A model generated the notes under the pieces. The model did no database searches and was not told where the DNA came from. It was given only the letters and a program-made list of their open reading frames with translations. From NCBI GenBank assembly GCA_032718475.1, contig JAUCBJ010009140.1:52488-116487 (forward strand): DNA of 64,000 bases, in the 5' to 3' direction. The translations under genes were made by a program, and so were the position numbers. Shown here in pieces: positions 25,501-58,255 of this stretch (its first letter is position 1; every line of letters begins with the position of its first letter). The stretch is from Nemertoderma westbladi (taxonomy: Eukaryota; Animalia; Xenacoelomorpha).

Positions 25501-28500
25501 GGGAGGGCGAATACTGTCACTATCCATCAATATTCTTTATTTCTTATCATATACCAAGTTCACATTATAGCTGGATGGCCAAAGTTAGTTCCTCGGAGTC
25601 AACCGCTTAACGAAAACTGGGCTATTCCTTTTCTGGGGCTCGAACTCACGACCTTACGGGTGGAAGACTGAAGCTTTAACCACCTGGAGATGCAGAAAAT
25701 GACCTTGTATATGTACATAAATTTTGACAGACGATATATTAATTCGCCGAGATGGTATTTACACCCCCCCCCCCCCCCCCCCCCCCCCCTCCCCTACTCC
25801 TTAGTTTATAGTAGGTCATAGGGTCATCGGATTGTGATATTTTTCCAATATATCGTTACATTTGCTACTAATATCTACAATAAACATTCCTTATAACAGT
25901 CCCAACTAACGAACAAGCGTGCGCTACGCAATCTAAGATTAAAGTCCACATTCAACTTCACTTATTAAATATAATAAATTGTTGATTTATATTCACAGCT
26001 CGACGATGTATATGGAAAATATTTATTAAACAAAAAAAATGGATATTCAATCTTTAGTTGAATCGAGTAGGTCAGACGATGTTAAAACTTTATTCGCCAA
26101 AACACCTGAAACTAAAGTCTATAAACGCCGATGGTACATATTGGCGTTGTTCTGCTCGGTTGGATTTGTGGAGTTCATGAACTGGAATACCTGGGCGCCT
26201 ATCGAGGCTTCAGCAAAACTCGTTTATACATGGGAGAACAGCGACATAGCGCTTCTAGAGAACTGGGGGTTCATTACGCTTCTATTGGGAACAACCGTGA
26301 CCACTTGGCTACTAGATAGCAAGGGGATGCGGGTTACTATGGTAATAACGATCGCCTTGGTTACAGCCGGCGCCGGTCTGCGTTGCATTACCATGGAACC
26401 CACCGCGGCGACGTGGTTGATAAACATTGGCCAAATACTTAACGGATTCGCAGGTGTTCTACCAAACGCCGGGGCGCCCCTTCTATCGGTGTTGTGGTTC
26501 CCTAGCAACCAACGACGCACTGCTACGGCGGCGGCCACTACCAGCATGTACGGGGGGCTCGCGTTATCATTTGTGGTCGGCCCCGCCATCGTTAAGGAGT
26601 CTAAAACGCATATTGAGCCACCCAATTATCTCCATCCACTTACCCTGGGGATAACAAACCAATCGTATTCGAGTTACCAAGGAAACGAACAGGATACCCG
26701 AAACTCGAAATCTGATTCGACACATTTATTTGGAAATCAAACTGACCCCATAACGGAACAACGACGACAGATACAGACTCTTGTCTACTTGGAGTTCGGT
26801 ATTTCCGCGTTGCTGTTGATACTCGTGTTAATTTACTTCCCGGAAAAGCCACCTATACCACCTACAGCCTCAGCCTCATCCATAAGAACAGATTTCAAAA
26901 AGGGAAGTGTTACCATTCTTAGAGACAGAAACTTTTGGTTTTTAGCTTTGGTTTACGCGGTTTTCTCAGGTTTAGTAATCTCTTATCTTTCTGTTCTAAG
27001 CGTTGATTTGGAGACTTTTGGTATAAGTCAGGAGACCGCAGGCTGGGTTGGTTTCTATGCGACATTGGCCGGCGCTTTAGGGAGCATACTATTTGCTAGG
27101 ATCACAGATGTTATGGATATTGGAATGCAAACTGTAGTATTGTTAGCTTGCGTTGTCGGTACAGTAATGTTTTACGCGTTCACCATGGTAGCTAAAGGTT
27201 ACTTCCCTATGACAGTAGCGTCGGTGTACGCTACTATTATAGCCACGGGATTATGCGCTAACGGAATAGTTCCGCTACTGTTTGAAATGGCGGCAGAGTT
27301 GTTCTATCCAGTGAGTGAGGAGTTAATAGCTGGGATGATGATGGTAGTTCAGAATGGAGTGGCAATGTTGTTGTTACTGGTCATGATGATACCTAATATC
27401 GGGGTTTCTTGGTTGGACTGGACAGTACTAGCCGGTATCACCATGTCGGTCCCCGTAATCGCTGCAGTGAACGCGACTAATAAACGAAGCAACTTCGATA
27501 AATTAAAGAGTCAAAAATCACTCAATTATATTCCTTAGTTAACAAAATCTTATTATTTTATGGGCAAAAAGGCCAAACTTCTATAAGAAGAATTGTAATA
27601 AAGCACCTAACCATTCGTTATTATATAATCTAACAATTTTTATCTGATAAGCGTTTCAAATCACTGTGATAAATAATCTTCAAAAAGTATGAGAACGATT
27701 TTTGAGGGGGGTAAACCGTCCCTTAGGATATATTGACTGACCGCCTTGCAAGATGCTACTTTTACTATCGGTTTTAGCATTACGTAGCAGGGCCCTCACA
27801 CAATCAACTTTTGTTGCGAGAAGTTTGTTTACAGATATTTTTCTAAAGAAAATGTTGATAAACCAAGTTTCAATACAAAAGTTGTTAGGGTCAGCCTGTT
27901 AGATGTTGCTGAAACTTACACCACCTGAGGTCATCCAATAGGCAATAGCATAGAGTTCACATGCAAACAAAATTAAATTGGTAAATCAGTGGTTTCTAAT
28001 TAATATAACTTTCGTTGGGCATAGCTTAGCTAATTCGGTCACCAGTTCGATCCCACCTGGGTGTCATTTGCTAAGCAGTGCCAAAATAAAATTATAAAAA
28101 ATTACAAAAATACCTAATTGTGATAACAATATAATTATCAGAAACTCCAGGGTGTCTATGGGAAACTTCCGTTGCTAAGCACTTTATAGTAAATTAAAAT
28201 ATAATTTTGCAATTTTGTTAACTTTATGTTTTTAAATACTGAAATGTACGTACATATTATATCAATTGGTGTTCGCCGTTTACTTTCAGTTGACATAACA
28301 GGTCGGGGTTTCCGTGAAGCAGAACAGCAAGACGTCAGGGATCAGCTGCCACCATACCGACCTGGACTGCCTTCCAAAAGTCGAGACATAGGGGGAGGGG
28401 GGGGGGGGGGGGGGTCTCTTGACGTAAATCCCATTATTAGTATTTAGCTGATTAGCAGTAATTAGCTGATATTTGAGTCGATTTCCCCTTGAGAGGCACA

Positions 28501-31500
28501 CATCGGCCCTCAAAGAATTATAGTCATTCCATTCACTTCACAGTTATAACTTGTGCCACAACTTCTTTCATTCGATTTTTATACGATAGCAGCAGTGCAC
28601 GAAAAAAGTATGTGGATGGAAGAAAGGAGTTTCCTAATTCCTGAACGGTTTCAGGTTTATCTAATAATAAAGGATTACCTCTATATGCATTCTAAGGCCT
28701 AGCCTAGCACTAAGTAAGCTATAGGTCAGACTCGAAATTTCAATGCATAACTGCATCGCTTATTTACGGTATTTCTTAGTAAATGTTAAAAGTAATTTAG
28801 TAATTTAGCCTATAAGTAGTAATTTAGGTAATTCCGGATTTCCGGTAACTATGGTAACTAAGGACAATTAAAGTTTGACAAAACAAATTCATGAATGAAT
28901 GTGAGAATCTTTTAGGCTGTTAAGCCAAGGAATGCCCGTTCAGCACCATGGGTGATCTTCCACAGTAAACCCTTCCACTCTGTTTCCTAAAGGAGTGCCT
29001 GTTCACCACCATGGGTGATCTTCCACAGTAAACCCTTCCACTCTGTTTCCTAAAGGAATGCCCGTTCACCACCATTGGAGATCTTCCACAGTAAACCCTT
29101 CCACTCTGTTTCCTAAAGGAATGCCTGTTCACCACCATGGGTGATCTTCCACAGCAAACCCTTCCACTCTGTTTCCTAAAGGAATGCCTGTTCACCACCA
29201 TGGGTGATGTGATCTACCAAAGTAAAGCCTTCCATTCTGTTCTCCTAAAGGAATGCCTGTTCACCACCATGGGTGATCTTCCACAGTAAACCCTTCCACT
29301 CTGTTTCCTAAAGGAATGCCTGTTCACCACCATGGGTGATCTTCCACAGTAAACCCTTCCACTCTGTTTCCTAAAGGAGTGCCTGTTCACCACCATGGGT
29401 GATCTTCCACAGTAAACCCTTCCACTCTGTTTCCTAAAGGAATGCCTGTTCACCACCATGGGTGATCTTCCACAGTAAACCCTTCCACTCTGTTTCCTAA
29501 AGGAATGCTTGTTCACCACCATGGTTGATCTTCCACAGTAAACCCTTCCACTCTGTTTCCTAAAGGAATGCCTGTTCACCACCATGGTTGATCTTCCACA
29601 GTAAACCCTTCCACTCTGTTTCCTAAAGGAATGCCTGTTCACCACCATGGTTGATCTTCTACAGTAAACCCTTCCAATCTGTTTCCTAAAGGAGTGCCTG
29701 TTCAGCACCATGGGTGATCTTCCACAGTAAACCCTTCCACTCTGTTTCCTAAAGGAATACCTGTTCACCACCATGGGTGATCTTCCACAGTAAACCCTTC
29801 CACTCTGTTTCCTAAAGGAGTGCCTGTTCAGCACCATGGGTGATCTTCCACAGTAAACCCTTCCACTCTGTTTCCTAAAGGAATGCCTGTTCTCCACCAT
29901 GGGTGATCTTCCACAGTAAACCCTTCCACTCTGTTTCCTAAAGGAATGCCTGTTAACCACCATGGGTGATCTTCCATAGTAAACCCTTCCACTCTGTTAC
30001 CTAAAGGAATGCCTGTTCTCCACCATGGGTGATCTTCCACAGTAAACCCTTCCACTCTGTTTGCTAAATGAATGCCTGTTCACCACCATGGTTGATCTTC
30101 CACAGTAAACCCTTCCACTCTGTTTTCTAAAGGAATGCCTGTTCTCCACCATGGTTGATCTTCCACAGTAAACCCTTCCACTCTGTTTCCTAAAGGAATG
30201 CTTGTTCACCACCATGGTTGATCTTCCACAGTAAACCCTTCCACTCTGTTTCCTAAAGGAATGCCTGTTCACCACCATGGTTGATCTTCTACAGTAAACC
30301 CTTCCAATCTGTTTCCTAAAGGAGTGCCTGTTCAGCACCATGGGTGATCTTCCACAGTAAACCCTTCCACTCTGTTTCCTAAAGGAATACCTGTTCACCA
30401 CCATGGGTGATCTTCCACAGTAAACCCTTCCACTCTGTTTCCTAAAGGAGTGCCTGTTCAGCACCATGGGTGATCTTCCACAGTAAACCCTTCCACTCTG
30501 TTCTCCACCATGGGTGATCTTCCACAGTAAACCCTTCCACTCTGTTTCCTAAAGGAATGCCTGTTCACCACCATCAGTGATCTTCCACAGTAAACCCTTC
30601 CACTCTGTTTCCTAAAGGAATACCTGTTCACCACCATGGGTGATTACTGATCTTCCACAGTAATCCCTTCCACTCTGTTTCCTAAAGGAGTTCCTGTTCA
30701 GCACCATGGGTGATCTTCCACAGTAAACCTTCCACTCTGTTTCCTAAAGGAATACCTGTTCACCACCATGGGTGATCTTCCACAGTAAACCCTTCCACTC
30801 TGTTTCCTAAAGGAGTGCCTGTTCAGCACCATGGGTGATCTTCCACAGTAAACCCTTCCACTCTGTTTCCTAAAGGAATGCCTGTTCTCCACCATGGTTG
30901 ATCTTCCACAGTAAACCCTTCCACTCTGTTTGCTAAATGAATGCCTGTTCACCACCATGGGTGATCTTCCACAGTAAACCCTTCCACTCTGTTTCCTAAA
31001 GGAATGCTTGTTCACCACCATGGTTGATCTTCCACAGTAAACCCTTCCACTCTGTTTCCTAAAGGAATGCCTGTTCACCACCATGGTTGATCTTCTACAG
31101 TAAACCCTTCCAATCTGTTTCCTAAAGGAGTGCCTGTTCAGCACCATGGGTGATCTTCCACAGTAAACCCTTCCACTCTGTTTCCTAAAGGAATGCCTGT
31201 TCTCCACCATGGTTGATCTTCCACAGTAAACCCTTCCACTCTGTTTCCTAAAGGAATGCTTGTTCACCACCATGGTTGATCTTCCACAGTAAACCCTTCC
31301 ACTCTGTTTCCTAAAGGAATGCCTGTTCACCACCATGGTTGATCTTCTACAGTAAACCCTTCCAATCTGTTTCCTAAAGGAGTGCCTGTTCAGCACCATG
31401 GGTGATCTTCCACAGTAAACCCTTCCACTCTGTTTGCTAAATGAATGCCTGTTCACCACCATGGTTGATCTTCCACAGTAAACCCTTCCACTCTGTTTCC

Positions 31501-34500
31501 TAAAGGAATGCTTGTTCACCACCATGGTTGATCTTCCACAGTAAACCCTTCCACTCTGTTTCCTAAAGGAATACCTATTCACCACCATGGGTGATCTTCC
31601 ACAGTAAACCCTTCCACTCTGTTTCCTAAAGGAATGCCTGTTCTCCACCATGGGTGATCTTCCACAGTAAACCCTTCCACTCTGTTTGCTAAATGAATGC
31701 CTGTTCACTACCATGGTTGATCTTCCACAGTAAACCCTTCCACTCTGTTTCCTAAAGGAGTGCCTGTTCAGCAACATGGGTGATCTTCCACAGTAAACCC
31801 TTCCACTCTGTTTCCTAAAGGAATGCCTGTTCTCCACCATGGTTGATCTTCCACAGTAAACCCTTCCACTCTGTTTGCTAAATGAATGCCTGTTCACCAC
31901 CATGGGTGATCTTCCACAGTAAACCCTTCCACTCTGTTTCCTAAAGGAATGCTTGTTCACCACCATGGTTGATCTTCCACAGTAAACCCTTCCACTCTGT
32001 TTCCTAAAGGAATGCCTGTTCACCACCATGGTTGATCTTCTACAGTAAACCCTTCCAATCTGTTTCCTAAAGGAGTGCCTGTTCAGCACCATGGGTGATC
32101 TTCCACAGTAAACCCTTCCACTCTGTTTCCTAAAGGAATGCCTGTTCTCCACCATGGTTGATCTTCCACAGTAAACCCTTCCACTCTGTTTCCTAAAGGA
32201 ATGCTTGTTCACCACCATGGTTGATCTTCCACAGTAAACCCTTCCACTCTGTTTGCTAAATGAATGCCTGTTCACCACCATGGTTGATCTTCCACAGTAA
32301 ACCCTTCCACTCTGTTTCCTAAAGGAATGCTTGTTCACCACCATGGTTGATCTTCCACAGTAAACCCTTCCACTCTGTTTCCTAAAGGAATACCTATTCA
32401 CCACCATGGGTGATCTTCCACAGTAAACCCTTCCACTCTGTTTCCTAAAGGAATGCCTGTTCTCCACCATGGGTGATCTTCCACAGTAAACCCTTCCACT
32501 CTGTTTCCTAAAGGAATGCCTGTTAACCACCATGGGTGATCTTCCATAGTAAACCCTTCCACTCTGTTACCTAAAGGAATGCCTGTTCTCCACCATGGGT
32601 GATCTTCCACAGTAAACCCTTCCACTCGGTTTGCTAAATGAATGCCTGTTCTCCACCATGGTTGATCTTCCACAGTAAACCCTTCCACTCTGTTTTCTAA
32701 AGGAATGCCTGTTCACCACCATGGTTGATCTTCCACAGTAAACCCTTCCACTCTGTTTCCTAAAGGAATGCTTGTTCACCACCATGGTTGATCTTCCACA
32801 GTAAACCCTTCCACTCTGTTTCCTAAAGGAATGCCTGTTCACCACCATGGTTGATCTTCTACAGTAAACCCTTCCAATCTGTTTCCTAAAGGAGTGCCTG
32901 TTCAGCACCATGGGTGATCTTCCACAGTAAACCCTTCCACTCTGTTTCCTAAAGGAATACCTGTTCACCACCATGGGTGATCTTCCACAGTAAACCCTTC
33001 CACTCTGTTTCCTAAAGGAGTGCCTGTTCAGCACCATGGGTGATCTTCCACAGTAAACCCTTCCACTCTGTTCTCCACCATGGGTGATCTTCCACAGTAA
33101 ACCCTTCCACTCTGTTTCCTAAAGGAATGCCTGTTCACCACCATCAGTGATCTTCCACAGTAAACCCTTCCACTCTGTTTCCTAAAGGAATACCTGTTCA
33201 CCACCATGGGTGATTACTGATCTTCCACAGTAATCCCTTCCACTCTGTTTCCTAAAGGAGTTCCTGTTCAGCACCATGGGTGATCTTCCACAGTAAACCT
33301 TCCACTCTGTTTCCTAAAGGAATACCTGTTCACCACCATGGGTGATCTTCCACAGTAAACCCTTCCACTCTGTTTCCTAAAGGAGTGCCTGTTCAGCACC
33401 ATGGGTGATCTTCCACAGTAAACCCTTCCACTCTGTTTCCTAAAGGAATGCCTGTTCTCCACCATGGTTGATCTTCCACAGTAAACCCTTCCACTCTGTT
33501 TGCTAAATAAATGCCTGTTCACCACCATGGGTGATCTTCCACAGTAAACCCTTCCACTCTGTTTCCTAAAGGAATGCTTGTTCACCACCATGGTTGATCT
33601 TCCACAGTAAACCCTTCCACTCTGTTTCCTAAAGGAATGCCTGTTCACCACCATGGTTGATCTTCTACAGTAAACCCTTCCAATCTGTTTCCTAAAGGAA
33701 TGCCTGTTCACCACCATGGTTGATCTTCTACAGTAAACCCTTCCAATCTGTTTCCTAAAGGAGTGCCTGTTCAGCACCATGGGTGATCTTCCACAGTAAA
33801 CCCTTCCACTCTGTTTCCTAAAGGAATGCCTGTTCTCCACCATGGTTGATCTTCCACAGTAAACCCTTCCACTCTGTTTCCTAAAGGAATGCTTGTTCAC
33901 CACCATGGTTGATCTTCCACAGTAAACCCTTCCACTCTGTTTCCTAAAGGAATGCCTGTTCACCACCATGGTTGATCTTCTACAGTAAACCCTTCCAATC
34001 TGTTTCCTAAAGGAGTGCCTGTTCAGCACCATGGGTGATCTTCCACAGTAAACCCTTCCACTCTGTTTGCTAAATGAATGCCTGTTCACCACCATGGTTG
34101 ATCTTCCACAGTAAACCCTTCCACTCTGTTTCCTAAAGGAATGCTTGTTCACCACCATGGTTGATCTTCCACAGTAAACCCTTCCACTCTGTTTCCTAAA
34201 GGAATACCTGTTCACCACCATAGTTGATCTTCCACAGTAAACCCTTCCACTCTGTTTCCTAAAGGAATACCTATTCACCACCATGGGTGATCTTCCACAG
34301 TAAACCCTTCCACTCTGTTTCCTAAAGGAATGCCTGTTCTCCACCATGGGTGATCTTCCACAGTAAACCCTTCCACTCTGTTTCCTAAAGGAATGCCTGT
34401 TAACCACCATGGGTGATCTTCCATAGTAAACCCTTCCACTCTGTTACCTAAAGGAATGCCTGTTCTCCACCATGGGTGATCTTCCACAGTAAACCCTTCC

Positions 34501-37500
34501 ACTCTGTTTGCTAAATGAATGCCTGTTCTCCACCATGGGTGATCCTCCACAGTAAACCCTTCCACTCTGTTTTCTAAAGGAATGCCTGTTCTCCACCATG
34601 GTTGATCTTCCACAGTAAACCCTTCCACTCTGTTTCCTAAAGGAATGCCTGTTCAGCACCATGGTTGATCTTCTACAGTAAACCCTTCCAATCTGTTTCC
34701 TAAAGGAGTGCCTGTTCAGCACCATGGGTGATCTTCCACAGTAAACCCTTCCACTCTGTTTCCTAAAGGAATACCTGTTCACCACCATGGGTGATCTTCC
34801 ACAGTAAACCCTTCCACTCTGTTTGCTAAATGAATGCCTGTTCTCCACCATGGGTGATCCTCCACAGTAAACCCTTCCACTCTGTTTTCTAAAGGAATGC
34901 CTGTTCTCCACCATGGTTGATCTTCCACAGTAAACCCTTCCACTCTGTTTCCTAAAGGAATGCCTGTTCAGCACCATGGTTGATCTTCTACAGTAAACCC
35001 TTCCAATCTGTTTCCTAAAGGAGTGCCTGTTCAGCACCATGGGTGATCTTCCACAGTAAACCCTTCCACTCTGTTTCCTAAAGGAATGCCTGTTCACTCC
35101 ACCATGGGTGATCTTCCACAGTAAACCCTTCCACTCTGTTTCCTAAAGGAATGCCTGTTCACCACCATGGTTGATCTTCCACAGTAAACCCTTCCACTCT
35201 GTTTCCTAAAGGAATGCCTGTTCACCACCATGGTTGATCTTCTACAGTAAACCCTTCCAATCTGTTTCCTAAAGGAGTGCCTGTTCAGCACCATGGGTGA
35301 TCTTCCACAGTAAACCCTTCCACTCTGTTTCCTAAAGGAATGCCTGTTCACTACCATGGTTGATCTTCCACAGTAAACCCTTCCACTCTGTTTCCTAAAG
35401 GAATGCTTGTTCACCACCATGGTTGATCTTCCACAGTAAACCCTTCCACTCTGTTTCCTAAAGGAATGCCTGTTCACCACCATGGTTGATCTTCTACAGT
35501 AAACCCTTCCAATCTGTTTCCTAAAGGAGTGCCTGTTCAGCACCATGGGTGATCTTCCACAGTAAACCCTTCCACTCTGTTTCCTAAAGGAATACCTGTT
35601 CACCACCATGGGTGATCTTCCACAGTAAACCCTTCCACTCTGTTTCCTAAAGGAGTGCCTGTTCAGCACCATGGGTGATCTTCCACAGTAAACCCTTCCA
35701 CTCTGTTCTCCACCATGGGTGATCTTCCACAGTAAACCCTTCCACTCTGTTTCCTAAAGGAATGCCTGTTCACCACCATCAGTGATCTTCCACAGTAAAC
35801 CCTTCCACTCTGTTTCCTAAAGGAATACCTGTTCACCACCATGGGTGATTACTGATCTTCCACAGTAATCCCTTCCACTCTGTTTCCTAAAGGAGTTCCT
35901 GTTCAGCACCATGGGTGATCTTCCACAGTAAACCTTCCACTCTGTTTCCTAAAGGAATACCTGTTCACCACCATGGGTGATCTTCCACAGTAAACCCTTC
36001 CACTCTGTTTCCTAAAGGAGTGCCTGTTCAGCACCATGGGTGATCTTCCACAGTAAACCCTTCCACTCTGTTTCCTAAAGGAATGCCTGTTCTCCACCAT
36101 GGTTGATCTTCCACAGTAAACCCTTCCACTCTGTTTGCTAAATGAATGCCTGTTCACCACCATGGGTGATCTTCCACAGTAAACCCTTCCACTCTGTTTC
36201 CTAAAGGAATGCTTGTTCACCACCATGGTTGATCTTCCACAGTAAACCCTTCCACTCTGTTTCCTAAAGGAATGCCTGTTCACCACCATGGTTGATCTTC
36301 TACAGTAAACCCTTCCAATCTGTTTCCTAAAGGAGTGCCTGTTCAGCACCATGGGTGATCTTCCACAGTAAACCCTTCCACTCTGTTTCCTAAAGGAATG
36401 CCTGTTCTCCACCATGGTTGATCTTCCACAGTAAACCCTTCCACTCTGTTTCCTAAAGGAATGCTTGTTCACCACCATGGTTGATCTTCCACAGTAAACC
36501 CTTCCACTCTGTTTCCTAAAGGAATGCCTGTTCACCACCATGGTTGATCTTCTACAGTAAACCCTTCCAATCTGTTTCCTAAAGGAGTGCCTGTTCAGCA
36601 CCATGGGTGATCTTCCACAGTAAACCCTTCCACTCTGTTTGCTAAATGAATGCCTGTTCACCACCATGGTTGATCTTCCACAGTAAACCCTTCCACTCTG
36701 TTTCCTAAAGGAATGCTTGTTCACCACCATGGTTGATCTTCCACAGTAAACCCTTCCACTCTGTTTCCTAAAGGAATACCTATTCACCACCATGGGTGAT
36801 CTTCCACAGTAAACCCTTCCACTCTGTTTCCTAAAGGAATGCCTGTTCTCCACCATGGGTGATCTTCCACAGTAAACCCTTCCACTCTGTTTGCTAAATG
36901 AATGCCTGTTCACTACCATGGTTGATCTTCCACAGTAAACCCTTCCACTCTGTTTCCTAAAGGAGTGCCTGTTCAGCAACATGGGTGATCTTCCACAGTA
37001 AACCCTTCCACTCTGTTTCCTAAAGGAATGCCTGTTCTCCACCATGGTTGATCTTCCACAGTAAACCCTTCCACTCTGTTTGCTAAATGAATGCCTGTTC
37101 ACCACCATGGGTGATCTTCCACAGTAAACCCTTCCACTCTGTTTCCTAAAGGAATGCTTGTTCACCACCATGGTTGATCTTCCACAGTAAACCCTTCCAC
37201 TCTGTTTCCTAAAGGAATGCCTGTTCACCACCATGGTTGATCTTCTACAGTAAACCCTTCCAATCTGTTTCCTAAAGGAGTGCCTGTTCAGCACCATGGG
37301 TGATCTTCCACAGTAAACCCTTCCACTCTGTTTCCTAAAGGAATGCCTGTTCTCCACCATGGTTGATCTTCCACAGTAAACCCTTCCACTCTGTTTCCTA
37401 AAGGAATGCTTGTTCACCACCATGGTTGATCTTCCACAGTAAACCCTTCCACTCTGTTTGCTAAATGAATGCCTGTTCACCACCATGGTTGATCTTCCAC

Positions 37501-40500
37501 AGTAAACCCTTCCACTCTGTTTCCTAAAGGAATGCTTGTTCACCACCATGGTTGATCTTCCACAGTAAACCCTTCCACTCTGTTTCCTAAAGGAATACCT
37601 ATTCACCACCATGGGTGATCTTCCACAGTAAACCCTTCCACTCTGTTTCCTAAAGGAATGCCTGTTCTCCACCATGGGTGATCTTCCACAGTAAACCCTT
37701 CCACTCTGTTTCCTAAAGGAATGCCTGTTAACCACCATGGGTGATCTTCCATAGTAAACCCTTCCACTCTGTTACCTAAAGGAATGCCTGTTCTCCACCA
37801 TGGGTGATCTTCCACAGTAAACCCTTCCACTCGGTTTGCTAAATGAATGCCTGTTCTCCACCATGGTTGATCTTCCACAGTAAACCCTTCCACTCTGTTT
37901 TCTAAAGGAATGCCTGTTCACCACCATGGTTGATCTTCCACAGTAAACCCTTCCACTCTGTTTCCTAAAGGAATGCTTGTTCACCACCATGGTTGATCTT
38001 CCACAGTAAACCCTTCCACTCTGTTTCCTAAAGGAATGCCTGTTCACCACCATGGTTGATCTTCTACAGTAAACCCTTCCAATCTGTTTCCTAAAGGAGT
38101 GCCTGTTCAGCACCATGGGTGATCTTCCACAGTAAACCCTTCCACTCTGTTTCCTAAAGGAATACCTGTTCACCACCATGGGTGATCTTCCACAGTAAAC
38201 CCTTCCACTCTGTTTCCTAAAGGAGTGCCTGTTCAGCACCATGGGTGATCTTCCACAGTAAACCCTTCCACTCTGTTCTCCACCATGGGTGATCTTCCAC
38301 AGTAAACCCTTCCACTCTGTTTCCTAAAGGAATGCCTGTTCACCACCATCAGTGATCTTCCACAGTAAACCCTTCCACTCTGTTTCCTAAAGGAATACCT
38401 GTTCACCACCATGGGTGATTACTGATCTTCCACAGTAATCCCTTCCACTCTGTTTCCTAAAGGAGTTCCTGTTCAGCACCATGGGTGATCTTCCACAGTA
38501 AACCTTCCACTCTGTTTCCTAAAGGAATACCTGTTCACCACCATGGGTGATCTTCCACAGTAAACCCTTCCACTCTGTTTCCTAAAGGAGTGCCTGTTCA
38601 GCACCATGGGTGATCTTCCACAGTAAACCCTTCCACTCTGTTTCCTAAAGGAATGCCTGTTCTCCACCATGGTTGATCTTCCACAGTAAACCCTTCCACT
38701 CTGTTTGCTAAATAAATGCCTGTTCACCACCATGGGTGATCTTCCACAGTAAACCCTTCCACTCTGTTTCCTAAAGGAATGCTTGTTCACCACCATGGTT
38801 GATCTTCCACAGTAAACCCTTCCACTCTGTTTCCTAAAGGAATGCCTGTTCACCACCATGGTTGATCTTCTACAGTAAACCCTTCCAATCTGTTTCCTAA
38901 AGGAATGCCTGTTCACCACCATGGTTGATCTTCTACAGTAAACCCTTCCAATCTGTTTCCTAAAGGAGTGCCTGTTCAGCACCATGGGTGATCTTCCACA
39001 GTAAACCCTTCCACTCTGTTTCCTAAAGGAATGCCTGTTCTCCACCATGGTTGATCTTCCACAGTAAACCCTTCCACTCTGTTTCCTAAAGGAATGCTTG
39101 TTCACCACCATGGTTGATCTTCCACAGTAAACCCTTCCACTCTGTTTCCTAAAGGAATGCCTGTTCACCACCATGGTTGATCTTCTACAGTAAACCCTTC
39201 CAATCTGTTTCCTAAAGGAGTGCCTGTTCAGCACCATGGGTGATCTTCCACAGTAAACCCTTCCACTCTGTTTGCTAAATGAATGCCTGTTCACCACCAT
39301 GGTTGATCTTCCACAGTAAACCCTTCCACTCTGTTTCCTAAAGGAATGCTTGTTCACCACCATGGTTGATCTTCCACAGTAAACCCTTCCACTCTGTTTC
39401 CTAAAGGAATACCTGTTCACCACCATAGTTGATCTTCCACAGTAAACCCTTCCACTCTGTTTCCTAAAGGAATACCTATTCACCACCATGGGTGATCTTC
39501 CACAGTAAACCCTTCCACTCTGTTTCCTAAAGGAATGCCTGTTCTCCACCATGGGTGATCTTCCACAGTAAACCCTTCCACTCTGTTTCCTAAAGGAATG
39601 CCTGTTAACCACCATGGGTGATCTTCCATAGTAAACCCTTCCACTCTGTTACCTAAAGGAATGCCTGTTCTCCACCATGGGTGATCTTCCACAGTAAACC
39701 CTTCCACTCTGTTTGCTAAATGAATGCCTGTTCTCCACCATGGGTGATCCTCCACAGTAAACCCTTCCACTCTGTTTTCTAAAGGAATGCCTGTTCTCCA
39801 CCATGGTTGATCTTCCACAGTAAACCCTTCCACTCTGTTTCCTAAAGGAATGCCTGTTCAGCACCATGGTTGATCTTCTACAGTAAACCCTTCCAATCTG
39901 TTTCCTAAAGGAGTGCCTGTTCAGCACCATGGGTGATCTTCCACAGTAAACCCTTCCACTCTGTTTCCTAAAGGAATACCTGTTCACCACCATGGGTGAT
40001 CTTCCACAGTAAACCCTTCCACTCTGTTTGCTAAATGAATGCCTGTTCTCCACCATGGGTGATCCTCCACAGTAAACCCTTCCACTCTGTTTTCTAAAGG
40101 AATGCCTGTTCTCCACCATGGTTGATCTTCCACAGTAAACCCTTCCACTCTGTTTCCTAAAGGAATGCCTGTTCAGCACCATGGTTGATCTTCTACAGTA
40201 AACCCTTCCAATCTGTTTCCTAAAGGAGTGCCTGTTCAGCACCATGGGTGATCTTCCACAGTAAACCCTTCCACTCTGTTTCCTAAAGGAATGCCTGTTC
40301 ACTACCATGGTTGATCTTCCACAGTAAACCCTTCCACTCTGTTTCCTAAAGGAATGCTTGTTCACCACCATGGTTGATCTTCCACAGTAAACCCTTCCAC
40401 TCTGTTTCCTAAAGGAATGCCTGTTCACCACCATGGTTGATCTTCTACAGTAAACCCTTCCAATCTGTTTCCTAAAGGAGTGCCTGTTCAGCACCATGGG

Positions 40501-43500
40501 TGATCTTCCACAGTAAACCCTTCCACTCTGTTTCCTAAAGGAATACCTGTTCACCACCATGGGTGATCTTCCACAGTAAACCCTTCCACTCTGTTTCCTA
40601 AAGGAGTGCCTGTTCAGCACCATGGGTGATCTTCCACAGTAAACCCTTCCACTCTGTTCTCCACCATGGGTGATCTTCCACAGTAAACCCTTCCACTCTG
40701 TTTCCTAAAGGAATGCCTGTTCACCACCATCAGTGATCTTCCACAGTAAACCCTTCCACTCTGTTTCCTAAAGGAATACCTGTTCACCACCATGGGTGAT
40801 TACTGATCTTCCACAGTAATCCNNNNNNNNNNNNNNNNNNNNNNNNNNNNNNNNNNNNNNNNNNNNNNNNNNNNNNNNNNNNNNNNNNNNNNNNNNNNNN
40901 NNNNNNNNNNNNNNNNNNNNNNATAGTAAACCCTTCCACTCTGTTACCTAAAGGAATGCCTGTTCTCCACCATGGGTGATCTTCCACAGTAAACCCTTCC
41001 ACTCTGGTTTGCTAAATGAATGCCTGTTCACCACCATGGTTGATCTTCCACAGTAAACCCTTCCACTCTGTTTTCTAAAGGAATGCCTGTTCTCCACCAT
41101 GGTTGATCTTCCACAGTAAACCCTTCCACTCTGTTTCCTAAAGGAATGCTTGTTCACCACCATGGTTGATCTTCCACAGTAAACCCTTCCACTCTGTTTC
41201 CTAAAGGAATGCCTGTTCACCACCATGGTTGATCTTCTACAGTAAACCCTTCCAATCTGTTTCCTAAAGGAGTGCCTGTTCAGCACCATGGGTGATCTTC
41301 CACAGTAAACCCTTCCACTCTGTTTCCTAAAGGAATACCTGTTCACCACCATGGGTGATCTTCCACAGTAAACCCTTCCACTCTGTTTCCTAAAGGAGTG
41401 CCTGTTCAGCACCATGGGTGATCTTCCACAGTAAACCCTTCCACTCTGTTCTCCACCATGGGTGATCTTCCACAGTAAACCCTTCCACTCTGTTTCCTAA
41501 AGGAATGCCTGTTCACCACCATCAGTGATCTTCCACAGTAAACCCTTCCACTCTGTTTCCTAAAGGAATACCTGTTCACCACCATGGGTGATTACTGATC
41601 TTCCACAGTAATCCCTTCCACTCTGTTTCCTAAAGGAGTTCCTGTTCAGCACCATGGGTGATCTTCCACAGTAAACCTTCCACTCTGTTTCCTAAAGGAA
41701 TACCTGTTCACCACCATGGGTGTGATCTTCCACAGTAAACCCTTCCACTCTGTTTCCTAAAGGAGTGCCTGTTCAGCACCATGGGTGATCTTCCACAGTA
41801 AACCCTTCCACTCTGTTTCCTAAAGGAATGCCTGTTCTCCACCATGGTTGATCTTCCACAGTAAACCCTTCCACTCTGTTTGCTAAATGAATGCCTGTTC
41901 ACCACCATGGGTGATCTTCCACAGTAAACCCTTCCACTCTGTTTCCTAAAGGAATGCTTGTTCACCACCATGGTTGATCTTCCACAGTAAACCCTTCCAC
42001 TCTGTTTCCTAAAGAAATGCCTGTTCACCACCATGGTTGATCTTCTACAGTAAACCCTTCCAATCTGTTTCCTAAAGGAATGCCTGTTCACCACCATGGT
42101 TGATCTTCTACAGTAAACCCTTCCAATCTGTTTCCTAAAGGAGTGCCTGTTCAGCACCATGGGTGATCTTCCACAGTAAACCCTTCCACTCTGTTTCCTA
42201 AAGGAATGCCTGTTCTCCACCATGGTTGATCTTCCACAGTAAACCCTTCCACTCTGTTTCCTAAAGGAATGCTTGTTCACCACCATGGTTGATCTTCCAC
42301 AGTAAACCCTTCCACTCTGTTTCCTAAAGGAATGCCTGTTCACCACCATGGTTGATCTTCTACAGTAAACCCTTCCAATCTGTTTCCTAAAGGAGTGCCT
42401 GTTCAGCACCATGGGTGATCTTCCACAGTAAACCCTTCCACTCTGTTTGCTAAATGAATGCCTGTTCACCACCATGGGTGATCTTCCACAGTAAACCCTT
42501 CCACTCTGTTTCCTAAAGGAATGCTTGTTCACCACCATGGTTGATCTTCCACAGTAAACCCTTCCACTCTGTTTCCTAAAGGAATGCCTGTTCACCACCA
42601 TGGTTGATCTTCTACAGTAAACCCTTCCAATCTGTTTCCTAAAGGAGTGCCTGTTCAGCACCATGGGTGATCTTCCACAGTAAACCCTTCCACTCTGTTT
42701 CCTAAAGGAATGCCTGTTCTCCACCATGGTTGATCTTCCACAGTAAACCCTTCCACTCTGTTTCCTAAAGGAATGCTTGTTCACCACCATGGTTGATCTT
42801 CCACAGTAAACCCTTCCACTCTGTTTGCTAAATGAATGCCTGTTCACCACCATGGTTGATCTTCCACAGTAAACCCTTCCACTCTGTTTCCTAAAGGAAT
42901 GCTTGTTCACCACCATGGTTGATCTTCCACAGTAAACCCTTCCACTCTGTTTCCTAAAGGAATACCTATTCACCACCATGGGTGATCTTCCACAGTAAAC
43001 CCTTCCACTCTGTTTCCTAAAGGAATGCCTGTTCTCCACCATGGGTGATCTTCCACAGTAAACCCTTCCACTCTGTTTCCTAAAGGAATGCCTGTTCACT
43101 ACCATGGTTGATCTTCCACAGTAAACCCTTCCACTCTGTTTCCTAAAGGAGTGCCTGTTCAGCACCATGGGTGATCTTCCACAGTAAACCCTTCCACTCT
43201 GTTTCCTAAAGGAATGCCTGTTCTCCACCATGGTTGATCTTCCACAGTAAACCCTTCCACTCTGTTTGCTAAATGAATGCCTGTTCACCACCATGGTTGA
43301 TCTTCCACAGTAAACCCTTCCACTCTGTTTCCTAAAGGAATGCTTGTTCACCACCATGGTTGATCTTCCACAGTAAACCCTTCCACTCTGTTTCCTAAAG
43401 GAATACCTATTCACCACCATGGGTGATCTTCCACAGTAAACCCTTCCACTCTGTTTCCTAAAGGAATGCCTGTTCTCCACCATGGGTGATCTTCCACAGT

Positions 43501-46500
43501 AAACCCTTCCACTCTGTTTCCTAAAGGAATGCCTGTTAACCACCATGGGTGATCTTCCATAGTAAACCCTTCCACTCTGTTACCTAAAGGAATGCCTGTT
43601 CTCCACCATGGGTGATCTTCCACAGTAAACCCTTCCACTCGGTTTGCTAAATGAATGCCTGTTCTCCACCATGGTTGATCTTCCACAGTAAACCCTTCCA
43701 CTCTGTTTCCTAAAGGAATACCTGTTCACCACCATGGGTGATCTTCCACAGTAAACCCTTCCACTCTGTTTCCTAAAGGAGTGCCTATTCAGCACCATGG
43801 GTGATGAACCACAGTAAACCCTTCCACTCTGTTCTCCACCATGGGTGATCTTCCACAGTAAACCCTTCCACTCTGTTTCCTAAAGGAATGCCTGTTCACC
43901 ACCATCAGTGATCTTCCACAGTAAACCCTTCCACTCTGTTTCCTAAAGGAATACCTGTTCACCACCATGGGTGATTACTGATCTTCCCAGTAATCCCTTC
44001 CACTCTGTTTCCTAAAGGAGTTCCTGTTCAGCACCATGGGTGATCTTCCACAGTAAACCTTCCACTCTGTTTCCTAAAGGAATACCTGTTCACCACCATG
44101 GGTGTGATCTTCCACAGTAAACCCTTCCACTCTGTTTCCTAAAGGAGTGCCTGTTCAGCACCATGGGTGATCTTCCACAGTAAACCCTTCCACTCTGTTT
44201 CCTAAAGGAATGCCTGTTCTCCACCATGGTTGATCTTCCACAGTAAACCCTTCCACTCTGTTTGCTAAATGAATGCCAGTTCACCACCATGGGTGATCTT
44301 CCACAGTAAACCCTTCCACTCTGTTTCCTAAAGGAATGCTTGTTCACCACCATGGTTGATCTTCCACAGTAAACCCTTCCACTCTGTTTCCTAAAGGAAT
44401 GCCTGTTCACCACCATGGTTGATCTTCTACAGTAAACCCTTCCAATCTCTTTCCTAAAGGAGTGCCTGTTCAGCACCATGGGTGATCTTCCACAGTAAAC
44501 CCTTCCACTCTGTTTCCTAAAGGAATGCCTGTTCTCCACCATGGTTGATCTTCCACAGTAAACCCTTCCACTCTGTTTCCTAAAGGAATGCTTGTTCACC
44601 ACCATGGTTGATCTTCCACAGTAAACCCTTCCACTCTGTTTGCTAAATGAATGCCTGTTCACCACCATGGTTGATCTTCCACAGTAAACCCTTCCACTCT
44701 GTTTCCTAAAGGAATGCTTGTTCACCACCATGGTTGATCTTCCACAGTAAACCCTTCCACTCTGTTTCCTAAAGGAATACCTATTCACCACCATGGGTGA
44801 TCTTCCACAGTAAACCCTTCCACTCTGTTTCCTAAAGGAATGCCTGTTCTCCACCATGGGTGATCTTCCACAGTAAACCCTTCCACTCTGTTTCCTAAAG
44901 GAATGCCTGTTAACCACCATGGGTGATCTTCCATAGTAAACCCTTCCACTCTGTTACCTAAAGGAATGCCTGTTCTCCACCATGGGTGATCTTCCACAGT
45001 AAACCCTTCCACTCGGTTTGCTAAATGAATGCCTGTTCTCCACCATGGTTGATCTTCCACAGTAAACCCTTCCACTCTGTTTTCTAAAGGAATGCCTGTT
45101 CTCCACCATGGTTGATCTTCCACAGTAAACCCTTCCACTCAGTTTCCTAAAGGAATGCTTGTTCACCACCATGGTTGATCTTCCACAGTAAACCCTTCCA
45201 CTCTGTTTCCTAAAGGAATGCCTGTTCACCACCATGGTTGATCTTCTACAGTAAACCCTTCCAATCTGTTTCCTAAAGGAGTGCCTGTTCAGCACCATGG
45301 GTGATCTTCCACAGTAAACCCTTCCACTCTGTTTCCTAAAGGAATGCCTGTTCTCCACCATGGGTGATCTTCCACAGTAAACCCTTCCACTCTGTTTGCT
45401 AAATGAATGCCTGTTCACTACTATGGTTGATCTTCCACAGTAAACCCTTCCACTCTGTTTCCTAAAGGAGTGCCTGTTCAGCACCATGGGTGATCTTCCA
45501 CAGTAAACCCTTCCACTCTGTTCTCCACCATGGGTGATCTTCCACAGTAAACCCTTCCACTCTGTTTCCTAAAGGAATGCCTGTTCACCACCATCAGTGA
45601 TCTTCCACAGTAAACCCTTCCACTCTGTTTCCTAAAGGAATACCTGTTCACCACCATGGGTGATTACTGATCTTCCACAGTAATCCCTTCCACTCTGTTT
45701 CCTAAAGGAGTTCCTGTTCAGCACCATGGGTGATCTTCCACAGTAAACCTTCCACTCTGTTTCCTAAAGGAATACCTGTTCACCACCATGGGTGATCTTC
45801 CACAGTAAACCCTTCCACTCTGTTTCCTAAAGGAGTGCCTGTTCAGCACCATGGGTGATCTTCCACAGTAAACCCTTCCACTCTGTTTCCTAAAGGAATG
45901 CCTGTTCTCCACCATGGTTGATCTTCCACAGTAAACCCTTCCACTCTGTTTGCTAAATAAATGCCTGTTCACCACCATGGGTGATCTTCCACAGTAAACC
46001 CTTCCACTCTGTTTCCTAAAGGAATGCTTGTTCACCACCATGGTTGATCTTCCACAGTAAACCCTTCCACTCTGTTTCCTAAAGGAATGCCTGTTCACCA
46101 CCATGGTTGATCTTCTACAGTAAACCCTTCCAATCTGTTTCCTAAAGGAATGCCTGTTCACCACCATGATTGATCTTCTACAGTAAACCCTTCCACTCTG
46201 TTTCCTAAAGGAGTGCCTGTTCAGCACCATGGGTGATCTTCCACAGTAAACCCTTCCACTCTGTTTCCTAAAGGAATGCCTGTTCTCCACCATGGTTGAT
46301 CTTCCACAGTAAACCCTTCCACTCTGTTTCCTAAAGGAATGCTTGTTCACCACCATGGTTGATCTTCCACAGTAAACCCTTCCACTCTGTTTCCTAAAGG
46401 AATGCCTGTTCACCACCATGGTTGATCTTCTACAGTAAACCCTTCCAATCTGTTTCCTAAAGGAGTGCCTGTTCAGCACCATGGGTGATCTTCCACAGTA

Positions 46501-49500
46501 AACCCTTCCACTCTGTTTGCTAAATGAATGCCTGTTCACCACCATGGTTGATCTTCCACAGTAAACCCTTCCACTCTGTTTCCTAAAGGAATGCTTGTTC
46601 ACCACCATGGTTGATCTTCCACAGTAAACCCTTCCACTCTGTTTCCTAAAGGAATACCTGTTCACCACCATGGTTGATCTTCCACAGTAAACCCTTCCAC
46701 TCTGTTTGCTAAATGAATGCCTGTTCACCACCATGGTTGATCTTCCACAGTAAACCCTTCCACTCTGTTTCCTAAAGGAATGCTTGTTCACCACCATGGT
46801 TGATCTTCCACAGTAAACCCTTCCACTCTGTTTCCTAAAGGAATACCTATTCACCACCATGGGTGATCTTCCACAGTAAACCCTTCCACTCTGTTTCCTA
46901 AAGGAATGCCTGTTCTCCACCATGGGTGATCTTCCACAGTAAACCCTTCCACTCTGTTTCCTAAAGGAATGCTTGTTCACCACCATGGTTGATCTTCCAC
47001 AGTAAACCCTTCCACTCTGTTTGCTAAATGAATGCCTGTTCACCACCATGGTTGATCTTCCACAGTAAACCCTTCCACTCTGTTTCCTAAAGGAATGCTT
47101 GTTCACCACCATGGTTGATCTTCCACAGTAAACCCTTCCACTCTGTTTCCTAAAGGAATACCTATTCACCACCATGGGTGATCTTCCACAGTAAACCCTT
47201 CCACTCTGTTACCTAAAGGAATGCCTGTTCTCCACCATGGGTGATCTTCCACAGTAAACCCTTCCACTCTGTTTGCTAAATGAATGCCTGTTCACCACCA
47301 TGGTTGATCTTCCACAGTAAACCCTTCCACTCTGTTTTCTAAAGGAATGCCTGTTCTCCACCATGGTTGATCTTCCACAGTAAACCCTTCCACTCTGTTT
47401 CCTAAAGGAATGCTTGTTCACCACCATGGTTGATCTTCCACAGTAAACCCTTCCACTCTGTTTCCTAAAGGAATGCCTGTTCACCACCATGGTTGATCTT
47501 CTACAGTAAACCCTTCCAATCCGTTTCCTAAAGGAGTGCCTGTTCAGCACCATGGGTGATCTTCCACAGTAAACCCTTCCACTCTGTTTCCTAAAGGAAT
47601 ACCTGTTCACCACCATGGGTGATCTTCCACACTAAACCCTTCCACTCTGTTTCCTAAAGGAGTGCCTGTTCAGCACCATGGGTGATCTTCCACAGTAAAC
47701 CCTTCCACTCTGTTCTCCACCATGGGTGATCTTCCACAGTAAACCCTCCCACTCTGTTTCCTAAAGGAATGCCTGTTCACCACCATCAGTGATCTTCCAC
47801 AGTAAACCCTTCCACTCTGTTTCCTAAAGGAATACCTGTTCACCACCATGGGTGATTACTGATCTTCCACAGTAATCCCTTCCACTCTGTTTCCTAAAGG
47901 AGTTCCTGTTCAGCACCATGGGTGATCTTCCACAGTAAACCTTCCACTCTGTTTCCTAAAGGAATACCTGTTCACCACCATGGGTGTGATCTTCCACAGT
48001 AAACCCTTCCACTCTGTTTCCTAAAGGAGTGCCTGTTCAGCACCATGGGTGATCTTCCACAGTAAACCCTTCCACTATGTTTCCTAAAGGAATGCCTGTT
48101 CTCCACCATGGTTGATCTTCCACAGTAAACCCTTCCACTCTGTTTGCTAAATGAATGCCTGTTCACCACCATGGGTGATCTTCCACAGTAAACCCTTCCA
48201 CTCTGTTTCCTAAAGGAATGCTTGTTCACCACCATGGTTGATCTTCCACAGTAAACCCTTCCACTCTGTTTCCTAAAGGAATGCCTGTTCACCACCATGG
48301 TTGATCTTCTACAGTAAACCCTTCCAATCTGTTTCCTAAAGGAATGCCTGTTCACCACCATGGTTGATCTTCTACAGTAAACCCTTCCAATCTGTTTCCT
48401 AAAGGAGTGCCTGTTCAGCACCATGGGTGATCTTCCACAGTAAACCCTTCCACTCTGTTTCCTAAAGGAATGCCTGTTCTCCACCATGGTTGATCTTCCA
48501 CAGTAAACCCTTCCACTCTGTTTCCTAAAGGAATGCTTGTTCACCACCATGGTTGATCTTCCACAGTAAACCCTTCCACTCTGTTTCCTAAAGGAATGCC
48601 TGTTCACCACCATGGTTGATCTTCTACAGTAAACCCTTCCAATCTGTTTCCTAAAGGAGTGCCTGTTCAGCACCATGGGTGATCTTCCACAGTAAACCCT
48701 TCCACTCTGTTTGCTAAATGAATGCCTGTTCACCACCATGGTTGATCTTCCACAGTAAACCCTTCCACTCTGTTTCCTAAAGGAATGCTTGTTCACCACC
48801 ATGGTTGATCTTCCACAGTAAACCCTTCCACTCTGTTTCCTAAAGGAATACCTGTTCACCACCATAGTTGATCTTCCACAGTAAACCCTTCCACTCTGTT
48901 TCCTAAAGGAATGCCTGTTCAACACCATGGGTGATCTTCCACAGTAAACCATTCCACTCTGTGTTTCCTAAAGGAATGCCTGTTCACCACCATGGGTGAT
49001 CTTCCACAGTAAACCCTTCCACTCTGTTTCCTAAAGGAATACCTGTTCACCACCATAGTTGATCTTCCACAGTAAACCCTTCCACTCTGTTTCCTAAAGG
49101 AATGCCTGTTCACCACCATGGGTGATCTTCCACAGTAAACCATTCCACTCTGTGTTTCCTAAAGGAATGCCTGTTCACCACCATGGGTGATCTTCCACAG
49201 TAAACCCTTCCACTCTGTTTCCCAAGTGCAGTCAAGGATCAAAGCCAAGGTTGGTCTAGGCTGAAGAATTTAAAGCACTGTGCCCAAATAGCGCTGCCCC
49301 ATCTAGGGATCGAACCAGGGCTTCCTAATTGGAAGCCCAGGCATGTCATCCATCACTAGACTAAGCTGCAAATTCGTCACTATATGCAACTGAATAAGAT
49401 TTATTTAATTGATAATTAAATTTGAAATCAACTAACCGATTCCAACATTGAAATTAATTTCTAAACTTACGTAACACGTTTGTAAACTAAGATTAATTGA

Positions 49501-54229: not shown

Positions 54230-54840
54230 GCCAAAAACAATTACCAATTGATGGAAAGGAGCAGGTTAAGGCCGGATTTTCTAACCAAAACAATAAACAG
54301 TCACTTTACCAAATGAAGGAAAGGAGCAGGTTACAGAGGCGGGCCTTTCTAACCAAAACAATAAACGATCATTCAACTAATTGAGGGAAAGGAGCGGGTT
54401 ATAGAGGCGGGATTTTCTAACCAAAACAATAAACAGTCACTTTACCAAATCAGGGAAAGGAGCAGGTTACAGAGGCGGGCCTTTCTAACCAAAACAATAA
54501 AGGATCATTCAACTAATTGAGGGAAAGGAGCGGGTTACAGAGGCGGGATTTTCTAACCAAAATAATAAACAGTCACTTTACCAAATCAGGGAAAGGAGCA
54601 CGTTACAGAGACGGGATTTTCTAACCAAAACAATAAACGATAACATTACCAATTGAGAGAAAGGAGCAGGTTACAGAGGCGAGATTTTCTAACAAAAACA
54701 ATAAACAGTCACTTTACCAAATCAGGGAAAGGAGCAGGTTGCAGAGGCGGGCCTTTCTAACCAAAACAATAAACGGTCACTTTACCAAATTAGGGAAAGG
54801 AGCATGTTACAGAGGCAGGGTTTTCTAACCAAAACAATAA
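54230..54840. repeat. 68-bp tandem repeat (about 9 units, alternating A/B variants); degenerate units at 55620-55850
   Basis: CTAACCAAAACAATAAAC...GGAAAGGAGCAGGTTACAGAGGCGGG at 54281, 54349, 54417 and onward. Confidence 0.9.
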
Positions 54841-58109: not shown

Positions 58110-58255
58110 AAACCATCCAATAAAGGTATATTTCTCAACTTTTTTAGCTGCCACCCCCGTAACATAATAACCAAGACTGCTAGGTCTACCATCAAGCAAG
58201 CCATAAGCAACAGAAACACGTTGGAAGGAAGTGAGCGTAGCCTTGACAAAATTAA
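58110..58255 (+). repeat. 146-bp inverted copy of PLE segment 57490-57635
   Basis: Plus-strand translation KPSNKGIFLNFFSCHPRNIIT...EGSERSLDKI matches the minus-strand PLE ORF with about 5 substitutions. Confidence 0.95.

Follow-up and report, generated by a model that had tools for sequence, protein, structure and literature searches.

An intronic tRNA-type SINE copy of Nemertoderma westbladi holding at least 320 tandem copies of an internal 63-bp segment

The window analyzed here is a stretch of 64,000 nucleotides from Nemertoderma westbladi (GenBank assembly GCA_032718475.1, contig JAUCBJ010009140.1, positions 52,488 to 116,487 of the forward strand), and all coordinates below refer to it. 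On its minus strand we found a tRNA-type SINE copy made up of a head, 320 units of ca. 63 bp and a (CATT)n tail, with a 7-bp direct repeat on both sides, inserted in the sense orientation within an intron of a host gene. Other copies of the family were sought in four contig sets (X1 to X4), of which X1 is possibly the window's own source and hence not independent. The features of the locus, in the direction of transcription of the host gene, are the following:

49536 to 49675, minus strand: upstream host exon, both of whose ends are joined in X4 contigs
24394 to 49535, minus strand: host intron, 25,142 bp, GT..AG; in an X4 contig, 49536 adjoins sequence that occurs nowhere but at 24364-24393
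49369 to 49375, minus strand: 5' TSD copy, 7 bp, whose final base doubles as the first base of the element; beyond it, the heads of other copies enter unrelated sequence
49290 to 49369, minus strand: tRNA-like SINE head, with an A-box-like motif (49363-49353) and a B box (49316-49306); for the family comparison and the fold, see below
49223 to 49289, minus strand: SINE body upstream of the first unit, without ca. 22 bp found in other copies
40923 to 49222, minus strand: array, head-side contig, with 131 whole units of 45 types
40823 to 40922, no strand: scaffold gap of 100 N, its size a placeholder
28927 to 40822, minus strand: array, tail-side contig, with 189 whole units of 39 types and a near-exact 5205-bp block duplication
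28891 to 28926, minus strand: SINE tail, a small stem-loop and then (CATT)2CAT, with one loop base missing
28884 to 28890, minus strand: 3' TSD copy, directly followed by the first sense-strand T run; X1 record 5 spans the flank-tail junction
24248 to 24393, minus strand: host exon downstream of the intron, from the X4 splice join, its 3' end approximate

Head and body together measure 147 bp (49369-49223), and the array (49222-28927) was parsed into 320 units and one gap-containing segment, with a length of 63 bp in 285 of the 321 segments. Identity of these segments to their consensus is 96.4%, and pairwise identity among units is 94.3%. The tail (28926-28891) terminates in (CATT)2CAT. Collapsed to one unit, the copy would be 244 bp long, close to the ca. 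250 bp proposed by an earlier reading of the sequence alone, whose order of parts, coordinates and unit count we could reproduce. As that reading also had it, CTTGG bounds the amplified segment, being found both upstream of the first unit and downstream of the last, and CAAATTC stands at both ends (28884-28890 and 49369-49375). Among 200,000 random flank pairs, a 7-mer repeat at most three bases from both ends arose by chance in 0.4%, which supports the assignment of CAAATTC as a TSD; this assignment draws on the direct repeat and the (CATT)2CAT tail and not on an empty allele, which did not appear among the loose ends listed, a weak test. The intronic position proposed earlier was borne out by one spliced X4 contig end, with GT..AG borders and the frame kept. 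The X4 contigs are listed as guessed DNA, but their exon-exon joins suggest RNA; they give neither level nor strand. The named best matches of the neighboring gene are invertebrate proteins (33 to 36% identity). The element is likely neutral intron baggage, with no sign of function.

The B box matches the consensus pattern exactly (three such matches in the window versus 0.12 expected), and the A-box-like motif lies 35 nt upstream of it. Against the family majority, this motif has one substitution and a net insertion of 4 nt, so that the A box of this copy appears damaged. A Pol III promoter pointing into the array had been proposed before: the orientation of the putative promoter is indeed into the array, and the sense strand has no run of four T over the 20.5 kb of the element, but the A box differs from that of the family. 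Another B-box element, at 19740-19819, can be aligned with the head (none of 500 shuffles as good). The predicted fold of the head is a long rod (z, -4.27), while the 63-bp unit and the tail are predicted to fold no better than shuffles. ARAGORN and Rfam found no tRNA match for the head; Rfam gave only two matches, both at chance level. The element may resemble the V domain of V-SINEs. A 14-nt motif of the family matches 13 of 14 positions at the 5' end of an RTE element (59804), but 39 of 100 shuffles also give a match, and 30 of 500 shuffles score as well as the alignment of the SINE body with the RTE. We rejected this RTE as the tail donor, its 3' end being unrelated (347 of 500 shuffles score as well), and no LINE partner was found in the window.

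Joints between head, unit, tail and flanks were called in the contigs at 80% likeness, with a short side of 28 to 35 letters and the letters between unspecified. Depth refers to summed contig depth, not to copy number, and the divergence of this copy's head and tail from the family would lead to an undercount of both and to inflated depth ratios. Heads entering unrelated flanks were found in at least 84 of 4876, 102 of 25179 and 73 of 6314 contigs (X1 to X3), and a tail directly after a unit in at least 39, 46 and 46. The tails of other contigs stop near 28894, with unrelated flanks beyond, and five unit-to-head joints in other contigs were among the joints listed. Contigs from three studies thus place head and tail in a dispersed SINE family and show them next to the same 63-bp unit at other sites, in agreement with the SINE origin proposed for head, unit and tail. 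A scan of metagenomes with an 18-nt tail motif returned 13 loci, all 13 without similarity beyond about the motif. A motif search of papers and their supplements, figure alignments lying outside it, found no description of the family, which does not establish its absence from print.

The ends of this copy have drifted from the family, a point that the earlier reading missed. At four positions of the head, 95 to 99% of the contig depth differs from it; loose ends behind 49227 in 55, 91, 48 and 7 contigs (X1 to X4) reveal the loss of ca. 22 bp of body; and the loop base absent from its tail is present in 94 to 98% of the depth. The first unit, in contrast, agrees with the commonest contig sequence, whereas the head departs from its contig counterparts at several fixed positions. 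An allele that marks 51% of 285 units in this array accounts for only 4.3, 4.4, 2.2 and 1.8% of the depth in X1 to X4, which puts the share of the family's units held by this array at 4 to 9% at the upper end; hence, most units would lie outside it. Conversely, five alleles present at 1 to 13% in at least three runs reach only 0 to 0.4% here. The depth of unit-unit junctions is 13 to 31 times that of the tail, a ratio that an undercount of tails would inflate. Judging from these contigs, the array is likely one of many such arrays in the genome. Other arrays make up 37% of the remaining window.

The junctions between units hold a record of how the repeat arose. Within the array, 311 of 320 are of a derived type, which differs from a clean CTTGG join by two changes, and 9 are deletion joins; neither the clean join nor the one-step intermediate occurs among the 320, edge units included. 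Both occur in other contigs: the clean 62-bp CTTGG join in four contigs of X1 and one of X2, and an intermediate with one additional T in 12, 14 and 7 contigs (X1 to X3), next to 42, 109 and 44 loose ends with the derived join, which makes up 91 to 96% of the depth at 49160 in X1 to X3. Since the clean join exists, CTTGG was likely the seed of the family's first duplication. With the array two changes away from the clean join, and the clean and intermediate joins in other contigs, the first duplication is therefore likely older than this insertion, and the expansion alone is local. The earlier reading had placed the birth of the satellite at this locus, with a single-unit SINE of ca. 250 to 270 bp inserted, duplicated here for the first time at CTTGG and grown to 320 units. 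The presence of both ends and of the 7-bp repeat would fit such a history, and the clean join in five contigs implies that duplication at the site bounding the unit is possible, perhaps repeatedly. We nevertheless consider it quite unlikely, given the lack of clean or intermediate joins in the whole array and a derived join that appears dominant outside it.

Two features overlooked by the earlier reading bear on the growth of the array. The first is the higher-order repeat structure: a block recurs at a distance of 5205 bp, with 7 mismatches over 5020 bp, and five of the last six units at the tail edge are singletons. This pattern supports the earlier claim of expansion in place, but the ca. 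80-fold figure attached to it hangs on the second feature, the 100-N gap at 40823-40922, because of which 20 kb is not a measured length. The ends flanking the gap have at least 500 bp in common; a false gap between overlapping ends was rejected, since the ends diverge and the last 100 bp before the gap are absent after it. That the locus is an assembly artifact, in which the gap unites a head-bearing array with a separate tail-bearing one or the length is badly wrong, agrees with a gap spanned by no contig, and the near-exact 5.2-kb duplication could be over-assembly. Such an artifact is highly improbable in view of the identical 7-mers at both ends (chance, 0.4%), of the units whose exact type is found across the gap (84 and 86% per side) and of the spliced X4 contig that links exons on either side of it in frame. 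A wrong array length is possible.

The reading that we prefer, with a probability of roughly 0.65, is that this copy of a dispersed tRNA-type SINE family, in which an internal 63-bp segment now recurs at least 320 times, likely brought at least two units with it on insertion and likely expanded at this site afterwards. The CTTGG-bounded segment would have been duplicated in an ancestral copy, and the join would first have acquired a T and then a substitution; each of the three junction states is present in the contigs, and their order is the one that we infer. Multi-unit copies may still have been copied by a LINE, spreading the derived join, as the repeat has the promoter on one side and the 3' stem-loop tail on the other and lacks a Pol III stop signal. 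One copy would then have entered the sense strand of the intron, duplicating 7 bp, and have grown by duplications of 3 units, ca. 40 units and 5.2-kb blocks, likely through unequal exchange between repeats, with odd units remaining at the tail edge and both ends of the element decaying meanwhile. Against this explanation, gene conversion could account for the spread of the derived join, or the join could be confined to a few large blocks.

Under spread at the DNA level, a single-unit copy inserted here would have acquired its repeats, through ectopic recombination or gene conversion, from an array already established elsewhere, and the satellite would pass between SINE copies with no multi-unit copy being retrotransposed. 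This would account for a shared derived join with intact ends, and for a head and tail more decayed than the units; however, homogenization within the array likewise keeps units near the consensus. Moreover, X2 records 9 and 11 contain two units with at least 300 other letters on each side (the nature of these flanks being unspecified), which is what mobility of short multi-unit copies would predict, and we regard spread of this kind as unlikely. Neither a full-length multi-unit copy with its own TSD at another locus nor a single-unit copy from end to end was found among the X1 to X4 contigs. No contig of these sets covers 49378-49521 so as to span the 5' flank side, a hole that proves nothing. 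At the tail, X2 records 11 and 12 and X3 record 18 hold two flank alleles running into it, which suggests a shared insertion, with a reach of 21 to 28 letters past the junction that is below the 31-letter rule.

The closest known counterparts are the SINE-derived satellites sSat1-3 of squamates (Vassetzky, Kosushkin and Ryskov 2023, PMC10702118). In the part of that work considered here, the tandem unit is also an internal part of a tRNA SINE (67 nt in snakes versus 63 bp here), loci hold up to 320 and almost 950 units, at 94% similarity in the former (94.3% pairwise here), subvariants alternate, and an uncommon variant retains both SINE termini. The array shares the structure of that class: the unit is part of the SINE and shorter than it, at least four monomers lie in the middle, and the terminal monomers reach the SINE termini. 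Unlike sSat, it belongs to an invertebrate host and another SINE, its unit is located close to the 3' end and not over the B box, and it has both ends with a TSD, which the sections of that paper considered here do not describe; its site is intronic, unlike the subtelomeric tendency of sSat3. sSat1-3 proper (Squam1-3 SINEs) were rejected, the named best matches of the neighboring gene being invertebrate proteins. In the blood clam Scapharca broughtonii (PMC11481361, in part), TSD1-(SINE)n-TSD1 arrays, also found in introns, have a complete head first, truncated repeats in the middle and a complete tail last, with one TSD around all, but they comprise 4 to 15 units with matches of 150 bp or more, whereas the present array has at least 320 units of 63 bp and a higher-order repeat structure. 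PcH-sat of the limpet Patella, from Nin-SINE, is another invertebrate satellite whose monomer holds a SINE segment; unlike this array, it is mature, pericentromeric and up to 10% of the genome, and no intact parent element is described around it in the part of the source considered (PMC11121367). The SINE route to satellite DNA is thus already known from snakes and clams, and this locus is a further case.

The SVA/LAVA elements (PMC4432496, in part) are likewise non-autonomous retroelements whose internal variable tandem repeat undergoes microhomology-mediated expansion at the DNA level. They are hominoid specific and have Alu-like and SINE-R or L1 parts with GC-rich units of 30 to 50 bp, against a tRNA-type head and a 63-bp unit here; none of those domains is present, the units being flanked by no more than a head and body of 147 bp and a tail of 36 bp. 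Unlike in SVA/LAVA, multi-unit copies are here only presumed to be mobile, the contigs showing a shared derived join and two-unit candidates. A tentative extension of our reading, at somewhat less than even odds, is that this is an SVA-like Pol III SINE that carries a variable tandem repeat as part of its design and whose multi-unit copies would retrotranspose and seed satellite at hundreds of sites, with tens of units per copy on average.

In the squamate study, as far as it was considered, direct links between SINE and satellite are few and copies with both ends uncommon (PMC10702118). Here, both ends, the TSD and three junction states survive in one species, and therefore the order of events could be tested by one long-read assembly. 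If the SVA-like reading is true, the genome would hold every stage of the series, starting with a clean microhomology join, continuing with short mobile arrays and ending in 20-kb blocks of higher-order repeats, each array being pinned by its own TSD, so that satellite birth rate and growth would be measurable per locus. Mobile elements that disperse short internal arrays able to grow into satellites have been described, with stress, in the part of that work considered, on Helitrons and LTR elements (3' UTRs) as vehicles (PMC12692304); here, the vehicle would be a SINE. If the family spreads with the repeat inside, the SINE would act as a seeder of satellites, for which mostly Helitrons and LTR elements have been considered.

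The element on the minus strand begins and ends as a SINE copy and holds a tandem array between its ends. The order proposed by the sequence-only reading (head, body, array, tail, flanking 7-mer) is borne out by the following features:

49375-49369, minus: 7-mer direct repeat, 5' copy (sequence read)
between 49369 and the array, minus: SINE head and body, 147 bp (sequence read)
49222 to 28927, minus: array of 63-bp units (unit parsing)
40823-40922: 100-N scaffold gap inside the array
between the array and the 3' 7-mer, minus: SINE tail, 36 bp, ending in (CATT)2CAT (sequence read)
28890-28884, minus: 7-mer direct repeat, 3' copy, identical to the 5' copy (sequence read)

Among 200,000 random flank pairs, 0.4% had a repeated 7-mer no more than 3 bases from each end. 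The B box is an exact match, with 0.12 expected across the window, and neither ARAGORN nor Rfam called a tRNA in the element. The array was parsed into 320 units and one gap-containing segment, with a segment length of 63 bp in 285 of 321 cases and an identity of 96.4% to the consensus (94.3% pairwise). Hence, the roughly 320 units claimed earlier were recovered, but not the 20-kb length, since the scaffold gap had been overlooked and the array length is therefore not a measured value.

Contigs of four sequencing runs (X1 to X4, from three samples and three studies, X1 possibly being the source of the window) were aligned to both element ends. SINE heads enter unrelated sequence at one common point in at least 84 of 4876 (X1), 102 of 25179 (X2), and 73 of 6314 (X3) contigs, and a unit is followed by the tail in at least 39, 46, and 46, respectively. 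At least 5 unit-to-head joints occur in other contigs among the matches listed, and the tails of other copies stop near 28894, with unrelated flanks beyond. By these flanks and joints, head, unit, and tail are parts of one dispersed family; no single-unit copy was found end to end among the contig matches listed (X1 to X4). Compared with its relatives, the window's copy has decayed at the head (four positions where 95 to 99% of contig depth differs), the A box (changed relative to the family), the body edge (about 22 bp missing directly before the first unit), and the tail (a loop without one base carried by 94 to 98% of contig depth).

Most units appear to lie elsewhere. A C-to-A variant is present in 51% of the array's 63-bp units versus 4.3, 4.4, 2.2, and 1.8% of contig depth (X1 to X4), so the array holds at most about 4 to 9% of all units. 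Several contig alleles of the unit are missing from this array, and two X2 contigs carry two units each with at least 300 other letters on either side. Junction-crossing depth is 13 to 31 times tail depth, these being summed contig depths rather than copy numbers, with decayed heads and tails possibly undercounted; the allele-share argument is less sensitive to such undercounting. Variant share and depth ratio both speak against a one-off satellite birth at this locus.

The junctions between units form a series at CTTGG. The clean join, with a 62-bp period, was found in at least 4 contigs of X1 and at least 1 of X2 (none in X3 or X4 among the joints listed), the join with an added T (63 bp) in at least 12, 14, and 7 (X1, X2, X3), and a join with the T and a further substitution is the commonest type in contigs. 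For contig joints the calling threshold was 80% likeness and the sides are short, so that they count as moderate evidence. Of this array's 320 junctions, 311 belong to the derived type and the remaining 9 are deletion joins; the older types are absent, also from the edges. In the simplest reading, the first duplication would be earlier than the insertion of the window's copy. On this reading, the CTTGG microhomology noticed from the sequence would be right for the family, but with 0 of 320 older joins the first duplication would not be placed here.

Expansion in place, another earlier proposal, agrees with the block repeats and singleton edge units. Besides a repeated trimer at the head edge and singletons at the tail edge, the array shows a 5205-bp block repeat (7 mismatches over 5020 bp) and smaller blocks, one of about 2570 bp and one of about 2635 bp. 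Repeated unequal exchange is the established model for such array growth, and the pattern fits it, recent relative to the decay of head and tail. Eight tandem arrays of at least 400 bp make up 57% of the window; with the SINE array set aside, the others fill 37% of what is left of it, and the genome is for this reason called prone to array growth.

One X4 contig end links 49536 to sequence occurring only at 24364-24393, and another X4 contig links 49677 to 50139; both joins (one contig each) are at GT-AG sites and keep a single open frame. The first join defines a host intron of 25,142 bp, within which lie the scaffold gap and the element, the latter in the sense direction. Because X4 bears the label of guessed DNA, the joins may come from a processed copy. 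We argue for one array on both sides of the gap because of the matching 7-mers, the X4 splice join, and the exact unit types common to both sides (84% and 86% of units). The contig ends at the gap have at least 500 bp in common and then diverge, ruling out a simple overlap. An intronless MFS transporter gene (26042-27538, plus, PF07690), possibly a retrogene, lies antisense within the same 25-kb intron, with 33 to 37% identity to its best matches, several named SLC49A4 homologues. For a neighbouring gene, the named matches are all proteins of invertebrates (33 to 36% identity).

Similar exons recur in the host gene (52110-6850, minus) at 24393 and near 15119 and 7535; with three similar helix-turn-helix-like exons besides, the gene seems to be made of repeated modules. 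After each helix-turn-helix-like exon stands an array of one and the same 30-bp unit:

50413-51970, minus: 51 copies
15186-18668, minus: 116 copies
8705-9115, minus: 14 copies

Pfam HTH_Tnp_1 matches weakly in two of the three exons (E 0.002 and 0.04). The 30-bp unit takes in the end of the exon together with a donor-like GT, and it reads as an open 10-codon repeat; the arrays may supply many in-frame alternative donors. Unrelated tandem arrays occupy 1-6843, 11917-14580, 54241-54841, and 62361-63036 (units of 19/35, 67, 68, and 50 bp). A 274-codon open frame (20646-21470, plus) has a signal-peptide-like stretch and many cysteines, and no Pfam match.

The Pol III promoter points into the array, as first described, but its A box is altered. 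The first T4 run on the sense strand lies just beyond the 3' direct repeat, and read-through of the array would be possible on paper. Other tRNA-like or B-box elements, with no tRNA called by ARAGORN among the four, are:

19735-19822, plus: paired acceptor-like stem and long central hairpin; aligns with the studied SINE head
25560-25710, minus
24590-24670, plus
28010-28090, plus

A reverse-transcriptase-like open frame (56868-58367, minus), without Pfam match and with a GIY-YIG-like stretch at its end, resembles by eye what we take to be a Penelope element; it includes an inverted partial copy (57490-57635 and 58110-58255). Two broken LINE copies (59745-60518 and 9636-11267, plus), 96.7% alike over 448 bp, presumably belong to the RTE clade. 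The 5' end of one matches a SINE-family body motif at 13 of 14 positions, which is not beyond chance; such a match is expected if the SINE body derived from an RTE 5' end, going by the available part of PMC5786205.

In the portions of the literature available, snake sSat3 has a 67-nt unit with subvariants that alternate; its loci reach 320 and nearly 950 units, and both SINE termini are kept in a form that is uncommon (PMC10702118). Clam TSD-(SINE)n-TSD arrays have a complete head first and a complete tail last, and tandem arrays are also present in clam introns (PMC11481361). SVA/LAVA elements carry an internal VNTR altered by microhomology at the DNA level (PMC4432496), a limpet satellite includes a Nin-SINE segment (PMC11121367), and a review counts SINEs among satellite sources (PMC12692304). 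Background on SINE body domains is given in PMC5804259 and PMC5786205; the supplements of PMC6887750 and PMC4758252 were searched, and figures and one supplement file beyond the text covered may carry relevant consensus sequences. SINE-derived satellites and SINE arrays within one TSD are thus already known from snakes and a clam. The window's element is like the form of sSat, the SINE-derived satellites of squamates, that has both SINE ends, and we put at about two in three the probability that the locus works in this way, probably fed by a repeat-carrying SINE. More tentatively, and at slightly less than even weight, a mobile VNTR-bearing SINE may seed one satellite genome-wide.
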